Under the pieces are notes generated by a model. The model saw only the letters and a program-made list of their open reading frames with translations. It was not told the DNA's origin and ran no database searches. Shown here piece by piece: positions 16,675 to 25,612 of a DNA stretch of 64,000 nt. The translations under genes were made by a program, and so were the position numbers. Origin of the DNA: Vulcanimicrobiota bacterium (lineage in GTDB: Bacteria > Vulcanimicrobiota > Xenobia > Xenobiales > JADMJV01); the NCBI GenBank assembly GCA_050250895.1, contig JBFWNU010000001.1, positions 96,001 through 160,000 on the forward strand, read 5' to 3'. The first letter of the stretch is position 1. Each line of letters opens with the position of its first letter.

Positions 16675-17058
16675 ATGGCTAAAGTAGACAAAGCTGACCT
16701 CGTTGAGGCTATCTGCAACCTGACCCTGCTCGAGGCTGCCGATATCGTGAAAGAACTCGAAGAAAAGCTCGGCGTATCGGCCGCGGCTCCCATGGCGATG
16801 GCGATGCCCGTCGGCGGCGGCGGCGCTGCCGCTGTTGAAGAAGAAAAAACCGAATTCAACGTCGAACTCACCTCGGCCGGCGCCAGCAAGATCCCCGTGA
16901 TCAAAGTCGTTCGCGCCGTCACCAACCTTGGCCTCAAAGAAGCCAAGGAGCTCGTCGAGAGCGCACCCACCAACGTCAAAGAAGCCGTGCCGAAGGAAGA
17001 GGCCGAGAAGATCAAGGCCCAGTTCGAAGAGGTCGGCGCCACCATTACTATCAAGTAA
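16675..17058 (+). CDS. rplL: 50S ribosomal protein L7/L12
   Basis: [30 protein letters not shown]. Confidence 0.98.
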
Positions 17059-17072
17059 CTCTCTCTTTCTCG

Positions 17073-17104
17073 AAAAGACCCCGGTTTTGCCGGGGTCTTT
17101 TTTT
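17073..17104 (+). terminator. Intrinsic terminator of rplJL
   Basis: AAAAGACCCCGG-TTTTG-CCGGGGTCTTTTTTT. Confidence 0.9.
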
Positions 17105-17176
17105 GTTCCAGCTCAGGATTCTTTGCTCGCAAGCAGGCCGCTTCGAGGGCTGGTTAGAATTGCCGGTGTTAGGTCC

Positions 17177-17638
17177 ATGGACTCCATCGAAACCACTCCC
17201 AACCCCCGCGTGCGCGCCGCCGTGGCGATTTGCCACGACGAGTCGATCTTACTCGTCTGTCACGAGAAAGCGGGTCGTCGCTACTGGCTCTTACCCGGGG
17301 GCGGCATCGACTTCGGCGAGCCGGCTCATCAGGCCGCCCGGCGCGAAGTGCTGGAGGAGACCGGGCTGGAAATCGAGATGGGACAGCTGTTGTTGGTCAA
17401 CGAGACCCTGGCTCCCGACGGCTCGAGGCACCTGCTGCACCTGACCTTTGCCGGAACCTTGACCGGCGGACACTTGCGACCCTCGCTCGACCCCCGCGTC
17501 TGCGGAGCTCGCTGGGTGCCCCTCGACGAACTGGCCGGCGTAACCCTCCATCCTCCCCTGGCTCCGCAATTGCTGGAAGCCCTCGACGGCGGCTACGGCC
17601 ACCGCGACCGCTTCCTCGGTAACCTCTGGGTCGACTGA
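17177..17638 (+). CDS. NUDIX hydrolase
   Basis: Nudix box GGGIDFGEPAHQAARREVLEETG. Confidence 0.92.
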   Translation: MDSIETTPNPRVRAAVAICHDESILLVCHEKAGRRYWLLPGGGIDFGEPAHQAARREVLEETGLEIEMGQLLLVNETLAPDGSRHLLHLTFAGTLTGGHLRPSLDPRVCGARWVPLDELAGVTLHPPLAPQLLEALDGGYGHRDRFLGNLWVD

Positions 17639-17744
17639 GGGAGCCGCTGCCCGGAGAAGGGAGCCGCTGCGCGGAGAAGGGAGCCGCTGCGCGGAGGAGG
17701 GAGCCGCTGCCCGGAGAGCGGAGCCGCTGCGCGGAGAAGGGAGC
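17639..17744 (+). repeat. 20-bp tandem repeat x5 (GGGAGCCGCTGCSCGGAGAA)
   Basis: Five near-identical units directly after the NUDIX stop codon. Confidence 0.9.
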
Positions 17745-18018
17745 GAAACTCGCTGTCGCTCGTTTCGAGGTTCTGGTTAGGCGGCCTGCGGCCGCAATCC
17801 TTCGGGCGCGTAGCCGCGCCGAATTCGGAATTCGGTAGTGGGGGCTGCCCGAATCTAGCTCGCTGGTTAGCAGCCGGTCTTCCGCGCGGAAGTGGCCCCC
17901 GCCGCGACTTCCTCGGCGAGAATGGCCCGCCCGCGGGATGCCGAGCGGCTCGTACTTCCATACTTCCAGCTGGAAGACATGCCAGTTGCCAGTTCTCGGC
18001 CGGCGCGAGGCCAGCACG

Positions 18019-18627
18019 GCTAGCCCAAGCTGCAAGGTCCGCGACTCGGCCGGACTTCCGTGCGGAAGTGGCCCGGCGGAGGCCAGTCCACGGCTTGCCG
18101 TGCCAGAGTTACGACGCGTAGCGTCGAGTAACTCAAAGTCTCACTGGCGAGCGCAAGCGAAGCCAGTGCTCCCATCTCCGGGCGCAGCCCGGCTCCCTTC
18201 TCGACGACGAAGTCGTCGCCCCGCTAGGCCAAGCTGCAAGGTCCGCGACTCGGCCGGACTTCCGTGCGGAAGTGGCCCGGCGGAGGCCAGTCCACGGCTT
18301 GCCGTGCCAGAGTTACGACGCGTAGCGTCGAGTAACTCAAAGTCTCACTGGCGAGCGCAAGCGAAGCCAGTGCTCCCATCTCCGGGCGCAGCCCGGCTCC
18401 CTTCTCGACGACGAAGTCGTCGCCCCGCTAGGCCAAGCTGCAAGGTCCGCGACTCGGCCGGACTTCCGTGCGGAAGTGGCCCGGCGGAGGCCAGTCCACG
18501 GCTTGCCGTGCCAGAGTTACGACGCGTAGCGTCGAGTAACTCAAAGTCTCACTGGCGAGCGCAAGCGAAGCCAGTGCTCCCATCTCCGGGCGCAGCCCGG
18601 CTCCCTTCTCGACGACGAAGTCGTCGC
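18019..18627. repeat. 204-bp tandem repeat x3 built from hairpins (REP/BIME-like)
   Basis: CCAAGCTGCAAGG recurs at 18025, 18229 and 18433; copies look identical; internal palindromes. Confidence 0.92.
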
Positions 18628-18702
18628 TCCTTTCTCACGAGCAAAGCGAGTTGCTCCTCTCTCACGAGCAAAGCGAGACGCTCCTCGCGAGCAACGCGAG
18701 CG
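18626..18702. repeat. 27-bp repeat (GCTCCTYTCTCACGAGCAAAGCGAG) x2 plus a degenerate copy
   Basis: Direct reading. Confidence 0.7.
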
Positions 18703-18818
18703 CCCCTTGCCAGTTTGTGAACTTCGTTCCACAGCTCTGTGGGTAACCCGGTGGACAAACAGGCAAAAGCCCGAAGGCACGCCGCATGAAAGCAAAAAAC
18801 CTCCATAAAATCAGGGTC

Positions 18819-18847
18819 TTGACATCATAGCCGAGGTGCGGTATCTT
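18819..18847 (+). promoter_or_regulatory. Sigma70-type promoter driving the candidate large ncRNA
   Basis: TTGACA (18819-18824), 17 nt, TATCTT (18842-18847), with an A-rich UP-like tract at ~18788-18810. Confidence 0.8.
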
Positions 18848-18853
18848 GCATTC

Positions 18854-20007
18854 ACTCCAGTCACGGAGTCGCCCCGCCAAGCGAGAGAGGCGGAGGGGTC
18901 TGGCACCCCCGACGGGTATCGGTCGAAGGGTCAGAGGTTAGACGCAAACCTTCGTGGTCACCGTCCTAGACGGAGCACCATCAAGCGTCTCCAGCGTCTC
19001 GACTGGAAAAATCGAGACAGGGCTCGACAGCCAGGTCTGGAACCCGCGAGGGGAAAGGGCGCCCGGGGCAACTCGGGAGATCCGCCAGATGAAGGTGAGC
19101 GAGGAGTTCGGTTGGTGACCGAACAGCGGAACACTCAAACGCCGCGCCACTCCACGGTGGCCAAAGAGAGTGGGGAGCACCTTCCCTGAGGTGTCCGGCC
19201 CACGCGGGATGTGGGAAGTGCCCTGACAAGCACAGAGCGGAGCTGCGACGGTTCTCTCGAGAACTCAAGCCGTGACGGTCGGCAGACCGTTGAAAAAGAG
19301 CGCAGGGGTGCATCTCTCCAGAAAGATGCTGAAGTCATCCATCAAATGGGGTGACAGGGCCCGCAGCCCAGGTTGGAACCGCGAGGATCAAGACTACTGC
19401 GAGGAACACTCGGAGTAGAGCCGACCCAGGGTAGAAGCGGGGTGCTCGAGAGCAGGACGGTGCTCGAGCAGCGGAGCGAAGGCTGCCGCACGAGGGTGAG
19501 AATCCTCGTCAAAGACTTCGGGGTTGCGAACAGACCTCAGACTCGCCCAGAGCCGCACTGGTAGAAAACGGGAGACGAGGCATCGTCTGAAACCCACGGC
19601 GGTGGAGCCGATGGGGGGTAACTCGGACCAGACGCAAAGGCGTCAAACGCGGGGGCGGAACTGCTAGGAACCGCGACGCGAGAGCGTGAAAAATGGAGCA
19701 GGGGTAGCATGCAGACCAGAGATATGCGCAGCGCTTCGTCTGAAGGCATTCGAAGCGAGGCCCGGCGCCTTAAACGGACCCGCGAGGGATAAAATCTTGG
19801 AGACAAGATGCCGGCTTAGGCGGACTCCCGGGAGCCTGGTGCAGGTGGGAAGGCGGCCAGGCAACGGTAGCATCCGATCTACCGTGACGTGCCAGCGTCC
19901 AAGGCGGATGATAGAGTATCGCCTCGATAAAAGCGAAATGCGTCTGTCGGACTGGTGAAGATGGCAGACCACAAAGACGCGTGCCGAGGAACGCGTCTTT
20001 TTTTTTT
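18854..20007 (+). ncRNA. Candidate very large (~1.15 kb) highly structured non-coding RNA, class unassigned
   Basis: Own promoter and terminator; no credible ORF; more than 20 short helices with multiple GNRA tetraloops and G-U pairs on the + strand; A-rich linkers. Confidence 0.75.
19973..20007 (+). terminator. Intrinsic terminator (may be bidirectional)
   Basis: AAAGACGCGT-GCCGAGGA-ACGCGTCTTT with a T-run to 20007. Confidence 0.92.
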
Positions 20008-20027
20008 GCCCGGCGACCGAAGTGAAC

Positions 20028-20210
20028 TTACTGCCTTTCGCGACTCTCTTCAAGAGCCTGGCGGCTGTAACACGCCATCGCCTCGTCGAGGGTGGCGTGC
20101 CTTTCACACCACCAAACCTCCCGCGGATGCTGATGGGAGAACGTGCCCCCACAATCCTCGTAGATGAATTTGCCGTTGGGTAACTCCTTGACCGGGATCG
20201 ACTGGTGCAT
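20028..20210 (-). CDS. Small hypothetical protein (60 aa, Cys/His-containing)
   Basis: AAAGGCGGAG RBS before the ATG; ends next to the terminator. Confidence 0.5.
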   Translation of the reverse strand: MHQSIPVKELPNGKFIYEDCGGTFSHQHPREVWWCERHATLDEAMACYSRQALEESRERQ

Positions 20211-20411
20211 TGGCTCCGCCTTTCACCGAGAACGCGTCCCTGACCGGTGAGACCTGACCGCGTCCTCATCACTCCCTACCGCCCTTTGCGCTGGGAACGA
20301 CTAACTCTTAACATTCGACGACGGCCCGAATCGGCCTTCGCTCGGGGAAGCTATTTGATCGAAGCGGGGCCGCTCGGGTTTGAGACCCGAGGCCTGGCTG
20401 TATAAGAAACT

Positions 20412-20786
20412 ATGGTTGAAGCGTTCGGCCCTCAAGGCATAGGTTATCCCAACGAAGAGGTGGAAATCACCCGCTTGATCCGGGACCGACTTGGACGCGA
20501 AAAGTGTCTCGAGCCCAGTGAGCGCGAGACCGTCGCCTACCGTATCGCCGAGATCATGGTCGCCGCCAAGCGGATGTACTCGACCTCGCTTCCCCGTTTA
20601 ACCAACGCCAACGGAGAATCCAGCGCCACCATGGAAGAGGACCTCAGCGGCATGTCGATGACCTTCTTGCACCTGTGTGACCTCCTACAAGACTTTCGAA
20701 GCGCCTTTGCCCTCGCCCACGACCAGGAACCGGCCCCAGCCTACGATTCTGATGGCGAAGATGAAGACGAGTCTTGGGAGCCTTAA
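20412..20786 (+). CDS. Hypothetical protein with acidic C-terminus
   Basis: ATG start, host codon usage, upstream of trxA. Confidence 0.7.
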   Translation: MVEAFGPQGIGYPNEEVEITRLIRDRLGREKCLEPSERETVAYRIAEIMVAAKRMYSTSLPRLTNANGESSATMEEDLSGMSMTFLHLCDLLQDFRSAFALAHDQEPAPAYDSDGEDEDESWEP

Positions 20787-20837
20787 AGCGGTCGATTGTT
20801 CGAAAGGTGGTCGACCGAGCGAAGCGAACGGCCCGGT

Positions 20838-21152
20838 ATGAAGCAAGTAACAAAAGATGACTTCGAAGCTGAGGTCATCCACTCCAACACCACGGTATTC
20901 GTGGAATTCGGAGCCGACTGGTGCGCTCCTTGCAAGCGCCTGGAGCCCCTGCTCGACAAGCTGGCCACCGACAACGCCGGCCGCCTGAAGGTGGTCAAGG
21001 TCAACGCCGAAGACGACCAGCCCCTGGCCGTGAAATACCAGGTCCGGGGTCTTCCCACCATCGTAGTCTTCAAGAACGGCGAACCGGTCGACCGCAAGAA
21101 CGGCTTCCAGTCCGAGGCCAACCTCAAGAAGCTTCTCGACGACCACGCCTAA
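20838..21152 (+). CDS. trxA: Thioredoxin
   Basis: WCAPC active site, GLPT cis-Pro motif. Confidence 0.93.
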   Translation: MKQVTKDDFEAEVIHSNTTVFVEFGADWCAPCKRLEPLLDKLATDNAGRLKVVKVNAEDDQPLAVKYQVRGLPTIVVFKNGEPVDRKNGFQSEANLKKLLDDHA

Positions 21153-21192
21153 CTAGAGAACGTCACCCGGGTGGCCTTCTCGGGGAGAATTG

Positions 21193-22242
21193 CTAGTCTT
21201 CGCAGACGGCCCGATTCTTGCCGGAGCGCTTGGCCTGATAGAGGGCTCGGTCGGCTCGCTCGAGGAGGCTGGCCATGGTGTCCTCTTCACGGCTGAGGGC
21301 GACCCCCATGCTAACCGTGACTTGTAGCCGAGTAACCCGACCGGCCACGGTGAGCAAGAGGTCGATGCTGGCGATCGAGCGGACCACCTGTTTGGCCCGG
21401 CGAAAAGCCTGGCTCAGGTTGACGTTTTCGAGAATGATGACGAACTCTTCGCCGCCGTAGCGAGCGATGAGATCGCTGGTCCGAGTCATTTTGTAGCTCT
21501 GCTTCACCAGCGCCTTCAAGACGCTGTCGCCGGCCGGATGCCCATAGGTGTCGTTGATCTGTTTGAAGTTGTCGATATCCCAGATCAAGATGGCAAACGG
21601 CGATCCGCCCAACACGTGGCGCTCGAGTCGCTCGCGCACCCGAGTTTCGAGAGCCTGCCGGTTGGCGCACCCGGTCAGAGGGTCGGTCAAGCTGGCGTCC
21701 ACGGCCCGTGAGAGATCGCAGTTGAGGCGCCGGATCTCCTGGTTCATTTCCCGCAGCATCTTCTCTTCGCGCTGTTGCCGCTCTTCTAGTTCCTGGCGGA
21801 TCACGGTGGCCTGTTGGCTAAGAATTTCGCGCATCTTGCGCAGGTCATCGAGGCGGGCGGCTTCATCGAGATAATGGACGCTGCGCTCCATTCGGTGATG
21901 GAAGTCTTTGTTCTCGCCGGTCAGACCGCTCAGGTTCTCGGCCATCACGCTGACGATGCTGCGGAACTCCTCTTCCCGCTCGCGGATGTAGGTCTTTTCG
22001 CGTTTGCTCTGGTCGAGGGCCGCATTGCGGCAAGTCTCGAGGGCTTGCCCCCACTGGCGGGGTTGGTCGAGGGCCAATGTGCTCAGGAGTTCGTCGATGG
22101 AGGCCAGGAAGGAATGGTTGTCCACCTCCTCGAGATCGAGGCTGAATCTCTTGAGACAATAGAGGGCCACCCGAAGGGAGTCCAGATAGAACTTGCGGTC
22201 GCACGGTTCCGCAACTGTTAAGGTTCGCCTCAGGTTGAGCAT
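21193..22242 (-). CDS. Diguanylate cyclase (coiled coil plus GGDEF domain)
   Basis: DPLTG..NR, DIDNFK.INDTYGH..GD, RYGGEEF. Confidence 0.95.
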   Translation of the reverse strand: MLNLRRTLTVAEPCDRKFYLDSLRVALYCLKRFSLDLEEVDNHSFLASIDELLSTLALDQPRQWGQALETCRNAALDQSKREKTYIREREEEFRSIVSVMAENLSGLTGENKDFHHRMERSVHYLDEAARLDDLRKMREILSQQATVIRQELEERQQREEKMLREMNQEIRRLNCDLSRAVDASLTDPLTGCANRQALETRVRERLERHVLGGSPFAILIWDIDNFKQINDTYGHPAGDSVLKALVKQSYKMTRTSDLIARYGGEEFVIILENVNLSQAFRRAKQVVRSIASIDLLLTVAGRVTRLQVTVSMGVALSREEDTMASLLERADRALYQAKRSGKNRAVCED

Positions 22243-22253
22243 CGTCTATCCTT

Positions 22254-25200
22254 TCATGCACTCAGCCGGGCCCCGCGCAGAGCGCGCGAGACAACATCGG
22301 CAATCTGGTTGAACTCGTAGGGCTTGTTAATGACGCCCAGCAAGCCTTCGTCAAGAATCTCCTGGACCGTCTGATTGAGACTATAGCCAGTCGAGAGGAT
22401 GGCCTGGACTTCGGGGTTGACTCGCTTGAGGGCACGGAAGCAATCTCGCCCGTCCAGGTTTGGCATGATCATATCGAGGATCACCAGGTCGATGTCCCGG
22501 TAGTGTTCTTTATAATAGTCCAGTCCCTCGAGTCCGTCGGATTTGGTGACGACCTCATAGCCGAGTCTTCGCAGCATCTTGTTGGCCATGTTACGAATAA
22601 TCTCTTCATCATCGACCACCAGGATGCGGCCGCGACCGGGGACGGGGGCGGCTTTGGGAGTGGGCACCGGCACGCTGCGGACACCCTCGTAGACCGGGAA
22701 GAACAGTTTGAAAGTGGTGCCGTGTCCGACCCGGCTCTCGACTTCGATGTGTCCCTCGTGGTTCTGGACGATGCCGTAGACCATGGCCAGACCTAGACCG
22801 CTGCCATTCTCTTTGGTCGTGAAGAACGGCTCGAAAATGCGCTTGAGATTCTCGCGAGGAATGCCCTGACCTTCGTCGATCACCTCGACCAGCAGGATGG
22901 GCCCCGAGGCCGACGGTTTGGGGTCGGTCATCGAGTCCACATTCGAGGTCCTGAGGCTGAGTCGCCCACCCTGGTCGGCCATGGCGTGACCGGCATTGAT
23001 GGCGAGATTGAGCAGCACCTGACTCATCTGGCTGGCATCGCCTCGCACCCAGGCCTTTTCGGCGTGCAGCAGACCCTCGGCCAGGATTCTCTTGTCCGTG
23101 GTGCGGCTGAGCAGCGTCAGTACCTCGGCGATGGTCTCATGCATCGAGAAGGCTTCGTGCTTGTTCTTGCCGCGACGAGCAAAGCCTAGCAGTTTCTGGG
23201 TCAAGTCGGCGGCCCGTTGGGCGGCCTTGTGGATCACGTCGGCCGCCTGATAGGTTTCCTCCCAATCTTCATGGGAGCATTTCAGCAGACTCGAGTAACC
23301 CAGGATGCCGCTCAAGAGGTTGTTAAAATCGTGGGCTACTCCGCCGGCCAGCGTGCCGATGGCTTCCATCCGTTGAGCCCGATGGAGGCGCTCTTGCATG
23401 GCCACTTCCTGGGTCACGTCCTTCTCCACCCAGACCATTTCTCGGACCCTACCCTCGGGGTCTCGGATGGGAGACACGGTGAGTTCGACCTCGAGCTTGT
23501 CGCCCTCGGGGCCGTGCCGACGGCGTCGACCGGACCAGACCATCTGGCGGTCGATGGCCGCGCGAATCTCGGGATCGTCGGCCAACTGGTGGCGACCCGA
23601 ACCGGCAATAGCCTGAAAGGCCGAGTTCGAGTATTGCACCAGGCCATCCAGGTCGGTAATGGCGATCGCTTCGGCACACTGCTCGATGGCCGCCACCAGG
23701 CGCCCGCGCTCATTCTCGATGGTCTTGTGTTGGGTCAGGTCACGGAGGGTTCCGCGCGAGCCGAGCAGATTGCCCATCTCGTCATAAACGGGCCGACTGA
23801 CGTAGTCCACCCAGCGGGTGGTCCCGTTGCGGTCCACGATACGAAACTCGCACTCGACCTCCTCGGAAGGCACACAGTCATCAGGGTCGGGCACCAGATG
23901 CCGGTCCTGAGGATGAGCGATGCGGAACAGAAAGTTCGTGTCCATCTCGAACTCGAAAGGCTCATAGCCCGAGATCCGCTTGCAGGCCGGCGAGGAGTAG
24001 AGAAAGTGGCCCTGAGGGCTGCGCCAGAACTCCCAGTCGTAGGTGTTCTCGGCGATAATGCGGCACTTGGTCTCGGAGATGCGCACGGCCTCGCGGGCGG
24101 CCATCCGGTCGGTGACGTCCTTGACCACGGCCAGAGTAGCTCGCTCGCCTCTGAACTTCATCGGGCGCTGGTGCACTTCCACCTTGAAGGTGAGGCCATC
24201 CTCGCTCGAACAGGTGGCCTGGTAAGAACAAGAGTCGCCATCGACCCAGGCAGACCCAAAGGAACGAGCCAGGTGTTCGGCAGCCAAAAGGTCCCAGATC
24301 TTGCGGCCCACCAGGGCGCAAGCCGGGGCTCCCAGGCGCATCGAGCAGTTCTCGTTGACGCTGAGCACCTGACCCTGCCGGTCGAACACCAGCACCATGT
24401 CGGGGATTCCCTCATACAGGAACTGGAAGGTCTCTTGAGAGGCCCGTAATTCGTCGTCCTTTTGCTCGAGCAGGTCGTGGATGCGCATGAGAGCTCGGGC
24501 CCGACCGACCTTGTCGGCCAGGTTGACCACATAGTCCGGTTCGACCGGGGCCCGCACGCAGGCATCGGCGCCTTCGCGAATCCAATCCACTTGAGACGAG
24601 GAGGTACCGGGTTCGAGCACGACGATGGAGACGCAGGCCGAGGTCTGGTCCCAGGTGCGATGGAGAATCTGGCGCGTCCAGCCCTGAGCGTGACCCTCGG
24701 CCAGAATGGCCACCTCGGGTCGCAAACTCTCTAGCCGACCCACGGCCTCCTCGACCGAGTCAGCGATGGTGACATTGTACCCACACCGCCGAAAGCTCGA
24801 TGCCAGTCCCGCCAATCCGGTGGTCCGAGAAGGGACCAGCAGGGCCCGCGGCCGGATACGCGGGAGAGCCCCTTTGAGCAGCTCGCGCACGCAATCGAGC
24901 AACTCGGCGGCGGTAAAAGGAGCAGCCAAAAAGGCGTTAGCACCGAGGCCCGCGGCGATGTTCTGAGCGTCCTCGCCACAGAAGATGGCCGACATGGCCA
25001 GCACGGGGACGTCGTTGTAGACTTCGAATTCCGGAGAACGAAGCAGCCGACAAAGCTTCCAGCCGTCGATCTCGGGCATGTGCAGGTCGGTGACGACGAG
25101 CCGAACCGAAATTCCGCGCTCGAGGTTGGCCACCGCCTCCACCCCGCTCGCGCAAGCCTCGACTTCATAGCCCTGATTTTGCAGGATCCGGGCCGTTTTG

Positions 25201-25265
25201 CGCAGCTGGGTCAGATTGTCGTTGACGACCAGAATCAGGCCTTTGTCCTCCCCGAGATCGTTCAC
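22254..25265 (-). CDS. Hybrid sensor histidine kinase (REC-REC-like-PAS x3-HisKA-HATPase-REC)
   Basis: AHDFNNLL, NLAINA, G.GI, FEPFFTTK, GSGLGL; receiver domains at both ends; GTG start overlaps the Hpt gene stop. Confidence 0.93.
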   Translation of the reverse strand: MNDLGEDKGLILVVNDNLTQLRKTARILQNQGYEVEACASGVEAVANLERGISVRLVVTDLHMPEIDGWKLCRLLRSPEFEVYNDVPVLAMSAIFCGEDAQNIAAGLGANAFLAAPFTAAELLDCVRELLKGALPRIRPRALLVPSRTTGLAGLASSFRRCGYNVTIADSVEEAVGRLESLRPEVAILAEGHAQGWTRQILHRTWDQTSACVSIVVLEPGTSSSQVDWIREGADACVRAPVEPDYVVNLADKVGRARALMRIHDLLEQKDDELRASQETFQFLYEGIPDMVLVFDRQGQVLSVNENCSMRLGAPACALVGRKIWDLLAAEHLARSFGSAWVDGDSCSYQATCSSEDGLTFKVEVHQRPMKFRGERATLAVVKDVTDRMAAREAVRISETKCRIIAENTYDWEFWRSPQGHFLYSSPACKRISGYEPFEFEMDTNFLFRIAHPQDRHLVPDPDDCVPSEEVECEFRIVDRNGTTRWVDYVSRPVYDEMGNLLGSRGTLRDLTQHKTIENERGRLVAAIEQCAEAIAITDLDGLVQYSNSAFQAIAGSGRHQLADDPEIRAAIDRQMVWSGRRRRHGPEGDKLEVELTVSPIRDPEGRVREMVWVEKDVTQEVAMQERLHRAQRMEAIGTLAGGVAHDFNNLLSGILGYSSLLKCSHEDWEETYQAADVIHKAAQRAADLTQKLLGFARRGKNKHEAFSMHETIAEVLTLLSRTTDKRILAEGLLHAEKAWVRGDASQMSQVLLNLAINAGHAMADQGGRLSLRTSNVDSMTDPKPSASGPILLVEVIDEGQGIPRENLKRIFEPFFTTKENGSGLGLAMVYGIVQNHEGHIEVESRVGHGTTFKLFFPVYEGVRSVPVPTPKAAPVPGRGRILVVDDEEIIRNMANKMLRRLGYEVVTKSDGLEGLDYYKEHYRDIDLVILDMIMPNLDGRDCFRALKRVNPEVQAILSTGYSLNQTVQEILDEGLLGVINKPYEFNQIADVVSRALRGARLSA

Positions 25266-25612
25266 GCTGCCACACTTCCTCGATAGCGGCGCAGCTCGTC
25301 CAACAGCGAGTAGGTCTCGTAGCGTAGTCGGGGCATGATGTCCAGGGCCCGGTCGATGGCCCCGCGGCGAGCCAGTTGCTCGACCTCGTGGGCCAGACGC
25401 ACCACATCCGGGGCACAAAAGATGGCCAGCGAGCCTTTGAGCGAGTGTGCCTCAAGCCGAGAACGCGCGCTGTCCCGACTGTTGAGGGCTCGCTCGACCT
25501 CTACCAATTGCTCCGGTGCGTTCTCGAGGAAGCAGTCGATAAGATCATAGAAGAGAGCACGATCCTGGTCGAGCGAATCCAGTATCTCCTGCTCAGGTAT
25601 CCTGTATGCCAT
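25262..25612 (-). CDS. Hpt phosphotransfer protein
   Basis: AHSLKGS motif; AAAGGAG RBS. Confidence 0.9.
   Translation of the reverse strand: MAYRIPEQEILDSLDQDRALFYDLIDCFLENAPEQLVEVERALNSRDSARSRLEAHSLKGSLAIFCAPDVVRLAHEVEQLARRGAIDRALDIMPRLRYETYSLLDELRRYRGSVAA

Follow-up and report, generated by a model that had tools for sequence, protein, structure and literature searches.

A large structured RNA gene of a Vulcanimicrobiota bacterium: evidence for a new non-coding RNA family with a probable tandem-module architecture

The locus examined here raises the question of what is encoded by more than a kilobase of DNA that carries its own transcription signals and no protein that can be recognized. 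It lies in a 64,000-nucleotide (nt) stretch of a Vulcanimicrobiota bacterium (assembly GCA_050250895.1, contig JBFWNU010000001.1, positions 96,001–160,000), called the window below, and occupies positions 18854–20007 of the window on the + strand. An earlier reading made without database searches (the sequence-only reading) had proposed a large structured non-coding RNA (ncRNA), either a new class of large ornate bacterial RNA or an expanded relative of GOLLD or ROOL. We consider it nearly certain that 18854–20007 is a real new ncRNA family, and the first of the two proposals is supported by the independent transcription unit, the lack of coding signal, the covariation and the blank search of Rfam described here.

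The unit is preceded by a sigma-70-type promoter at 18819–18847 (+ strand), in which the −35 element TTGACA (18819–18824) and the −10 element TATCTT (18842–18847) are separated by a 17-nt spacer. A consensus scan found this to be the sole sigma-70-like site in 17500–21500 (shuffle mean, 0.4). The predicted +1 falls near 18854, where a 5′ terminal hairpin (18854–18869, ACUCC-AGUCAC-GGAGU, + strand) is followed by the invariant sequence CGCCCC, and an intrinsic terminator at 19973–20007 (+ strand) closes the unit with a 10-pair stem (19973–20000), an 8-nt loop and a T-run to 20007, giving a gene that spans ~1,154 nt with the predicted +1 and the whole T-run included. The promoter and the terminator were both located where the sequence-only reading had placed them. 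The same arrangement was found in all 18 trimmed copies, six from the same genome and 12 from relatives, with three of the 3′ ends set by hand: each carries TTGAC(A), a 17–18-nt spacer and (T/C)AnnnT at a fixed distance before the 5′ hairpin (ACUCCAGUCACGGAGU-CGCCCC), and each is closed by a hairpin and a T-run as an intrinsic terminator. The trimmed copies measure 988–1,639 nt, and RNA lengths in the family range from 985 to 1,640 nt. The 5′ hairpin stands at the start of every copy, its second pair changing from C-G to U-A (ACUCC/GGAGU versus AUUCC/GGAAU), and the terminator stem shows compensatory changes among the paralogues. Between promoter and terminator, the + strand is purine-rich, with a GC skew of +0.13 to +0.19 and an AT skew of about +0.3. 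Judged by these signals, 18854–20007 (+ strand) is a stand-alone gene with its own strong promoter and intrinsic terminator.

In an alignment of the four close copies of this genome (A1), homology extended from ~110 nt before the −35 element, e.g. GGGTAACCCGGTGGACAAAC, to the terminator T-run, and compensatory changes were seen in hairpins. The upstream block conserved among these paralogues beyond the −35 element (18712–18818, + strand) may be a regulatory or UP-like region; it was not apparent in the upstream stretches examined from other genera. Several sister-genus copies carry A/T tracts immediately 5′ of the −35 element in a ~60% G+C genome, and we infer that these resemble UP elements.

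Open reading frames (ORFs) overlap the unit on both strands, and those on the + strand encode 47–117 amino acids (aa), which could be taken as a sign that the unit encodes a protein, or that the RNA has a dual function and carries a small ORF. Inside the unit, the + strand has no ORF longer than 90 aa, compared with 100 ± 32 aa for the longest in shuffles, and no ORF of 18854–20007 has a recognizable product, as had been noted before. Codon periodicity was not detected in any of three clades: the variable columns were distributed over the codon positions as 85/95/98, 214/214/193 and 206/203/203 (chi-square p for 3-nt periodicity, 0.61, 0.49 and 0.99), and no 180-nt window in the same test departed from an even spread. 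Insertions and deletions whose length is not a multiple of three are frequent among the copies. Together with the shuffle-like ORF lengths, these results leave a coding or dual-function gene only a vanishingly small probability.

Rfam 15 gave no family at gathering score anywhere in the 64-kb window, and none for 8 other members of the family. A scan of 18500–20300 at E-values up to 10 returned 10 matches, all noise; the best, BTH_s19 (E 0.068), was rejected, lying on the minus strand at 18631–18777, outside the unit. GOLLD, ROOL, OLE, HEARO, RNase P, tmRNA and introns were absent among these 10 matches, so that the idea of an expanded GOLLD or ROOL relative is not supported, and the novelty of the RNA stood up to the comparison with covariance models. 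Canonical genes for RNase P RNA (RF00010, C1:1125467–1125845, 305.3 bits) and tmRNA (RF00023, C3:741155–741536, 180.6 bits) lie elsewhere in this genome (G000); the sequence-only reading had found no hallmark motifs of rRNA, RNase P, tmRNA or group I/II introns in the unit. The sole 6S RNA candidate of the genome is at G000:C1:76298–76466 (minus strand), with 30.7 bits, below the cut-off of 46.4. RNase P RNA, tmRNA and 6S RNA resemble the present RNA in being stable structured RNAs with genes of their own, but none of them matches the unit. Full-text literature searches, with subscription journals outside their range, found no large RNA described in Eremiobacterota, Vulcanimicrobiota or Xenobia. 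We rate the RNA as a new class.

Covariation among homologues was strong both in the core of the RNA and over its full length. For the core (window 19670–19863), the structure was predicted by RNAalifold from an alignment (A3) of 61 non-redundant sequences. This structure contains 44 pairs, and 97.9% of the alignment cells were paired, compared with 28.9–45.6% when the partners were slid by 1–3 columns; 15 of the 44 pairs had changed on both sides, in 272 such cells. None of 500 shuffles reached these values; only the number of further pair types was also attained in shuffles (153 of 500). The helix ACGC-GAGA-GCGU, for example, occurs as ACCA...UGGU, ACUC...GAGU and ACGG...CCGU, and GCCUGG/CCAGGC as GUUUGG/CCAAAC. 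For the full length of the same 61 sequences, aligned on sequence outside the core, the consensus fold has 52 helices with 262 pairs in all, of which 155 show compensatory changes in two or more sequences, compared with 68–77 after sliding; 91.2% of the cells were paired, compared with 36–41%. The 1,182 G-U cells exceeded the 357 A-C cells, which identifies + as the RNA strand and agrees with the strand assigned from the sequence alone.

Most of the helices listed in the sequence-only reading coincide with covarying helices of the consensus fold. The hairpin formed by GTCTCGA (18996–19002) and TCGAGAC (19012–19018) matches base by base, and compensatory consensus helices were recovered at 18997–19002/19012–19017, 19043–45/19050–52, 19063–67/19072–76, 19106–11/19119–24, 19275–80/19285–90 and 19676–79/19684–87. 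Three others were not recovered as listed: for the hairpin at 19490–19509, the consensus fold has only 19487–88/19507–08, with no covariation; that at 19794–19809 was found in the single-sequence fold alone; and the pairing of GTCTGTC with GGCAGAC near the 3′ end is absent from the consensus fold.

We found that the conserved core is not the only copy of its fold in the RNA. A covariance model built from the 3′ core alone (R1) matched the unit three times on the + strand. Module 3 is the conserved core itself (19670–19863; 197.5 bits), which retains about 91% identity between genera. Module 2 (19269–19470) was matched over the full length of the model with 31.2 bits (E 3.2e-9) and retains GCAGGGGU and GGCCCG, and module 1 (18906–19125), a degenerate copy of the ~200-nt fold, was likewise matched over the full model length with 26.5 bits (E 6.5e-8). 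The direct repeats of the unit gave the same register as R1, with spacings of 337, 345 and 396 nt: D2 and D6 place module 1 in register with module 2, and D3 aligns modules 2 and 3 at a spacing of 396 nt. The diverged paralogues also contain three modules, one of them at E 4.6e-22. Linker 1 (19126–19268, + strand, 143 nt) contains the covarying helices 19174–81/19190–96 and 19200–04/19212–16, and linker 2 (19471–19669, + strand, 199 nt) contains 19477–82/19515–20 and 19573–78/19583–88, in each of which 6 of 6 pairs covary. The linkers may be decayed modules, a reading that for linker 1 is drawn from the five-module relatives. The 3′ tail (19864–19972, + strand) forms nested hairpins at 19870–75/19906–11 (6 of 6 pairs covarying) and 19885–90/19895–900 (5 of 6).

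The relatives with five modules belong to a sister family (f2), in which R1 matched five times in each of four loci with a period of ~255 nt. Their modules are regular, with spacers of about 60 nt; CAGGGGU recurs at 93, 351, 608, 858 and 1062, followed ~60 nt later by GGCC[CU]G in most modules. These loci have a TTGACA-17-TATATT promoter and a terminator, predicting a transcript of about 1,250 nt. When 72 modules were aligned together (A4), 41 of the 44 pairs had changed on both sides and 92.6% of the cells were paired, compared with 33–41% after sliding. The shared ~200-nt fold includes a closing stem and a hairpin capped by a tetraloop, a junction of three helices in which CAGGGGUAGC...GCGCAG...GGCCC is found, another junction that bears a short GNRA hairpin, and, as its terminal hairpin, one of the GGUGC-AGGNGNG-GGCGGCC type; two conserved hairpin loops of the module are GNRA loops (GAGA and GCGA). 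A wider alignment (A2) also predicts pairing of CUGC with GCAG, which involves invariant bases; its pairing of ACC.C with G.GGU was set aside, the closing stem of R1 covarying among the 72 modules instead. These data make it very likely that one ~200-nt fold is repeated in tandem along the RNA, with three modules here and five in the sister family. Two metagenome contigs of 1,946 and 1,958 nt (L068 and L124) match the 5′ part (~3–775) and the core (~1575–1840), with roughly 800 nt unmatched between them, and suggest that some versions of the RNA may reach or pass 1.9 kb.

Several stretches of module 3 are identical in 61 of 61 A3 sequences (CAGGGGUAGC, CAGCG within GCRCAGCG, UGGUGC and GGCGGCCA). 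Such identity across genera is typical of catalytic or ligand-binding cores, and the RNA could be imagined as a ribozyme with its active site in the invariant core of module 3. We regard this as very unlikely: none of the known ribozyme models matches, neither a substrate nor a cleavage site can be discerned, and five repeats of a core in one chain are atypical of ribozymes.

The gene is one of a set. BLAST and nhmmer located six copies in its own assembly (9.5 Mb, 17 contigs), four of about 1,150 nt that are 81–83% identical and two diverged copies of about 1,070–1,120 nt, and full-length homologues were found in related genomes. The copies, the 985–1,640-nt family and the tandem build go beyond what the sequence-only reading had described. 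Contig C2 of this genome carries two copies on the same strand, 5 kb apart. At L021, L038, L042 and L083, a second, shorter RNA copy lies head to head ~100 nt upstream, with divergent promoters.

A 35-nt core signature in IUPAC code occurred at 15 loci in metagenome-assembled genomes (MAGs; one genome for each of 185,579 species). The records that bear the signature are mostly titled Vulcanimicrobiota or Candidatus Xenobia. The exceptions are two records titled Burkholderiales, one Selenomonadaceae MAG and one "bacterium" (they include L027, L037, L039 and L041); the Burkholderiales and Selenomonadaceae titles may be mislabels or reflect mis-binned contigs. In the phylum sample, R1 matched 21 of 151 genomes (by family, 14 of 15 genomes in f1, 5 of 5 in f2 and 1 of 1 in f5), and was absent from f3 (0 of 19), f15 (0 of 71) and all other families of that sample. 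Genome sizes are about 5–9.5 Mb in the RNA-positive families and 1.9–4.7 Mb in the family of the same order that gave no match. From these matches, the RNA family appears restricted to lineages with large genomes within one class, whose records are titled Vulcanimicrobiota or Candidatus Xenobia; its spread beyond the phylum was viewed through the signature only, which is strict and would miss sister-family modules.

The multiple copies, some of them 5 kb apart or head to head, would suit a noncoding element that is selfish or mobile, for example a non-autonomous retroelement or a transposon passenger. However, the paralogues are only 81–83% identical, so the duplications are old; homology stops exactly at the promoter block and the terminator; one locus is syntenic across genera; and the flanks of the paralogues differ from each other. 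There were no matches to the signature in viral contigs, no BLAST match to the core in phage or plasmid records, and no match of an intron or ωRNA model. A mobile element is, on this evidence, highly improbable. A tRNA scan of 17000–22000 was also blank, and the lack of phage or tRNA neighbors asserted in the sequence-only reading thus held in all these searches.

We then turn to the presence of the RNA in sequence libraries. The signature was found in 106 contigs of a metagenome collection, of which 75 lie wholly within the unit and 29 carry flanking sequence of more than 200 nt. Forty-one of the 106 begin with CGGRRnCGCCCC, the 3′ arm of the 5′ hairpin, 36 of these at the very first base; 34 stop within the region of the terminator, and 24 extend over the whole distance between the 5′ hairpin and the terminator. 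Since DNA contigs would end randomly, those bounded by the unit are probably assembled transcripts. Among public runs, 20 contain 0.16–0.24 of the sampled words, the share expected of a relative, and three RNA runs (X1 and X6 from one study, X5 from another) and one DNA run were compared with the window. In X1 and X6, contigs of a relative that is ~96% identical (32 of 831 letters differ) cover 18868–19698 (863 nt) and 19669–19988, jointly 18868–19988, at word depths of about 940–1,090 and 460–650, respectively. X5 contains a 1,007-nt contig spanning 18891–19895. The three RNA runs gave no cover of 18656–18823 or 20000–20260, a weak negative since the flanks of the relative may differ from those of the window. 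In the DNA run, the same relative was present at a depth of 5.65, with a contig on 20046–20235. These results demonstrate that the RNA is present in environmental RNA libraries, in contigs bounded by the unit.

The contigs bear on whether the transcript is a precursor cut between its modules into active ~200-nt RNAs, in the manner of tandem small RNA or ToxI-type arrays. The regular modules and short spacers of the five-module relatives would suit such a precursor, and the contigs are compatible with processing. Against it, the 863-nt and 1,007-nt contigs from the RNA runs bridge modules, the 24 collection contigs span the entire unit, the linkers bear covarying hairpins of their own, and no nuclease gene is linked to all copies. 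We consider a precursor quite unlikely.

Comparison with known large RNAs places this family near GOLLD (RF01998), ROOL (RF03087) and OLE (RF01071) in general character. Like them, it is long, non-coding, intricately folded, GNRA-rich and covarying, and forms a discrete transcript, but the window unit and its 8 relatives match none of these models. Many GOLLD members exceed 800 nt, according to the part of PMC12286853 covered here; the present family is larger, its members measuring 985–1,640 nt and some contigs about 1.95 kb. According to the same part of that paper (PMC12286853), phages and prophages encode GOLLD and ROOL near tRNA islands, whereas this RNA has several chromosomal copies, lacks a phage or tRNA context and is flanked by genes for L10, a NUDIX protein, a GGDEF protein and a histidine kinase. 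Tandem homologous domains, as found here, are not described for GOLLD or ROOL in the covered part of PMC12286853, which reports that these RNAs form 8-mer and 14-mer cages via kissing loops and A-minor contacts. The large size, ornate fold, many GNRA loops and abundance of the present RNA could likewise point to an RNA-only, self-assembling particle, a closed cage or ring without protein, in which the repeated modules might act as built-in subunits. The lack of similarity to the ROOL or GOLLD model and of a phage or tRNA context speaks against it, and we hold this possibility to be distinctly improbable.

In the principle of its design, the RNA is akin to RNAs that repeat one unit. CsrB/RsmZ-type sponge RNAs are stand-alone, abundant and trans-acting, repeat one binding unit, a short hairpin with GGA in its loop, and have several paralogues in some genomes. 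The present family shares with them one unit repeated along the chain and several paralogues, but its repeat is a ~200-nt multi-helix domain with GNRA loops, and the whole RNA is three to four times longer. GGA is found in the P8 loop (AGGNGNG) of some family members only. Glycine riboswitches combine two small tandem aptamers in a 5′ leader that controls the downstream gene; they too are built of homologous tandem folded domains, but the domains here are larger, number three to five and belong to a transcript that is terminated and gene-independent. The repeat unit is an order of magnitude larger than the units of CsrB or of tandem aptamers. We found no example in the literature of tandem duplication of a complex fold as an RNA architecture, using full-text searches with subscription journals outside their range.

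From this architecture, we propose that the RNA, which is probably trans-acting, would serve as a multivalent platform in which each module offers the same invariant junction (CAGGGGUAGC, GCGCAG and GGCCC) together with the conserved short GNRA hairpin. Several copies of a single partner, which might be a protein, another RNA or a small ligand, could thereby be bound to one chain. Alternatively, the modules would dock together through contacts of the tetraloop-receptor type and form a compact particle. We offer the multivalent platform tentatively, as a reading with somewhat less than an even chance of being right; identity, architecture and inferred mechanism, taken jointly, seem to us moderately probable. 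It is also conceivable, but unlikely, that the RNA is a covalent pseudo-oligomer, in which three to five ~200-nt domains dock, within and perhaps between chains, into a closed RNA particle.

A number of points weigh against the interpretation of the locus as a modular, structured RNA acting as a platform. The independent unit, the absence of coding signal and the compensatory structure agree with what is generally expected of a large structured ncRNA, but folding stability above that of shuffles was not found: the minimum free energy z-score of the 194-nt core is −0.26 on the + strand and −0.39 on the − strand, and the case for more structure than chance therefore rests on conservation and covariation. 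The central GGGU/GCCC helix is nearly invariant, with 1 changed cell in A4, and covariation is uninformative there. The long-range pairs of the full-length consensus fold show no covariation and were not adopted. Although the A4 values were reached by none of 500 shuffles, A4 was fitted to the model, which favors its structure. The assignment of the bounded collection contigs to transcripts derives from their ends and not from the sample type, RNA libraries can contain DNA, and the contigs show presence and bridging rather than strand, ends or level. No gene accompanies all copies of the RNA (726 flanking ORFs in 47 contexts, with Pfam searches of the flanks). As for the platform itself, it is a proposal from the architecture, and the window family keeps the invariant sequences in the 3′ module only, modules 1 and 2 scoring 26–31 bits. 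Identical binding sites are therefore not shown three times in the RNA of the window, and the five-module sister family suits the multivalent reading better than the window family does.

The RNA gene is preceded by rplJ (L10), a NUDIX gene and three tandem copies of a 204-nt repeat. Downstream, it is followed by a small ORF on the minus strand, a 124-aa ORF and the genes for a GGDEF protein and a hybrid histidine kinase. The last two (21193–25418, minus strand) look ordinary: the first product is a GGDEF diguanylate cyclase, and the second, a hybrid histidine kinase of 1,054 aa, has several PAS domains and a receiver domain. Other paralogues adjoin unrelated genes (an S1/P1 nuclease, a WD40 protein and a menaquinone-synthesis gene), and flank synteny is specific to the locus, a NADAR-domain gene lying upstream in relatives.

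The 124-aa ORF (20412–20786, + strand), whose product has an acidic tail, occurs in a 124–130-aa form downstream of the RNA in 6 of 47 contexts, other genera included. It belongs to no Pfam family, and its structure-atlas model, with a pLDDT (predicted local distance difference test) of 0.53, gave no usable lead. Since this ORF lies on the same strand and is only 75 nt away in one locus, the RNA might be a cis-acting leader or riboswitch-like element for it. In the window, however, a strong terminator and 400 nt separate the unit from the ORF, the 124-aa neighbor is missing at the other five paralogues, and the collection contigs end at the terminator. A leader function is accordingly something we regard as extremely unlikely, and we retain the reading of the unit as an independent, probably trans-acting RNA.

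Repeats occupy the region between the NUDIX and RNA genes. Directly 5′ of the promoter block, at 18019–18627, are three 99%-identical tandem copies of a strongly self-pairing 204-nt unit, parts of which recur at many genomic sites (89 BLAST hits) and frequently form short arrays, resembling a family of palindromic repeats of the repetitive extragenic palindromic (REP) type. At 17638–17744, a 20-nt unit occurs 5.3 times in tandem, and at 18623–18707 a 27-nt unit occurs two to three times.

Very few bacterial non-ribosomal RNAs exceed 500 nt, and the RNA described here very likely arose by tandem duplication of a complex fold. The length of its sequences still permits in vitro transcription, chemical probing and cryo-electron microscopy. 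The literature covered mentions no cultivated member of the class, and the covered part of PMC11484240 gives background on the taxon and nothing on RNA. If the pseudo-oligomer reading were true, the RNA would be a single-chain counterpart of the homo-oligomeric cages of ROOL and GOLLD; in an alternative form of that reading, it would be the RNA core of an undescribed, Xenobia-specific ribonucleoprotein machine. The family would provide a new model for the evolution and folding of large RNAs and a marker of undescribed biology in the Xenobia lineage.

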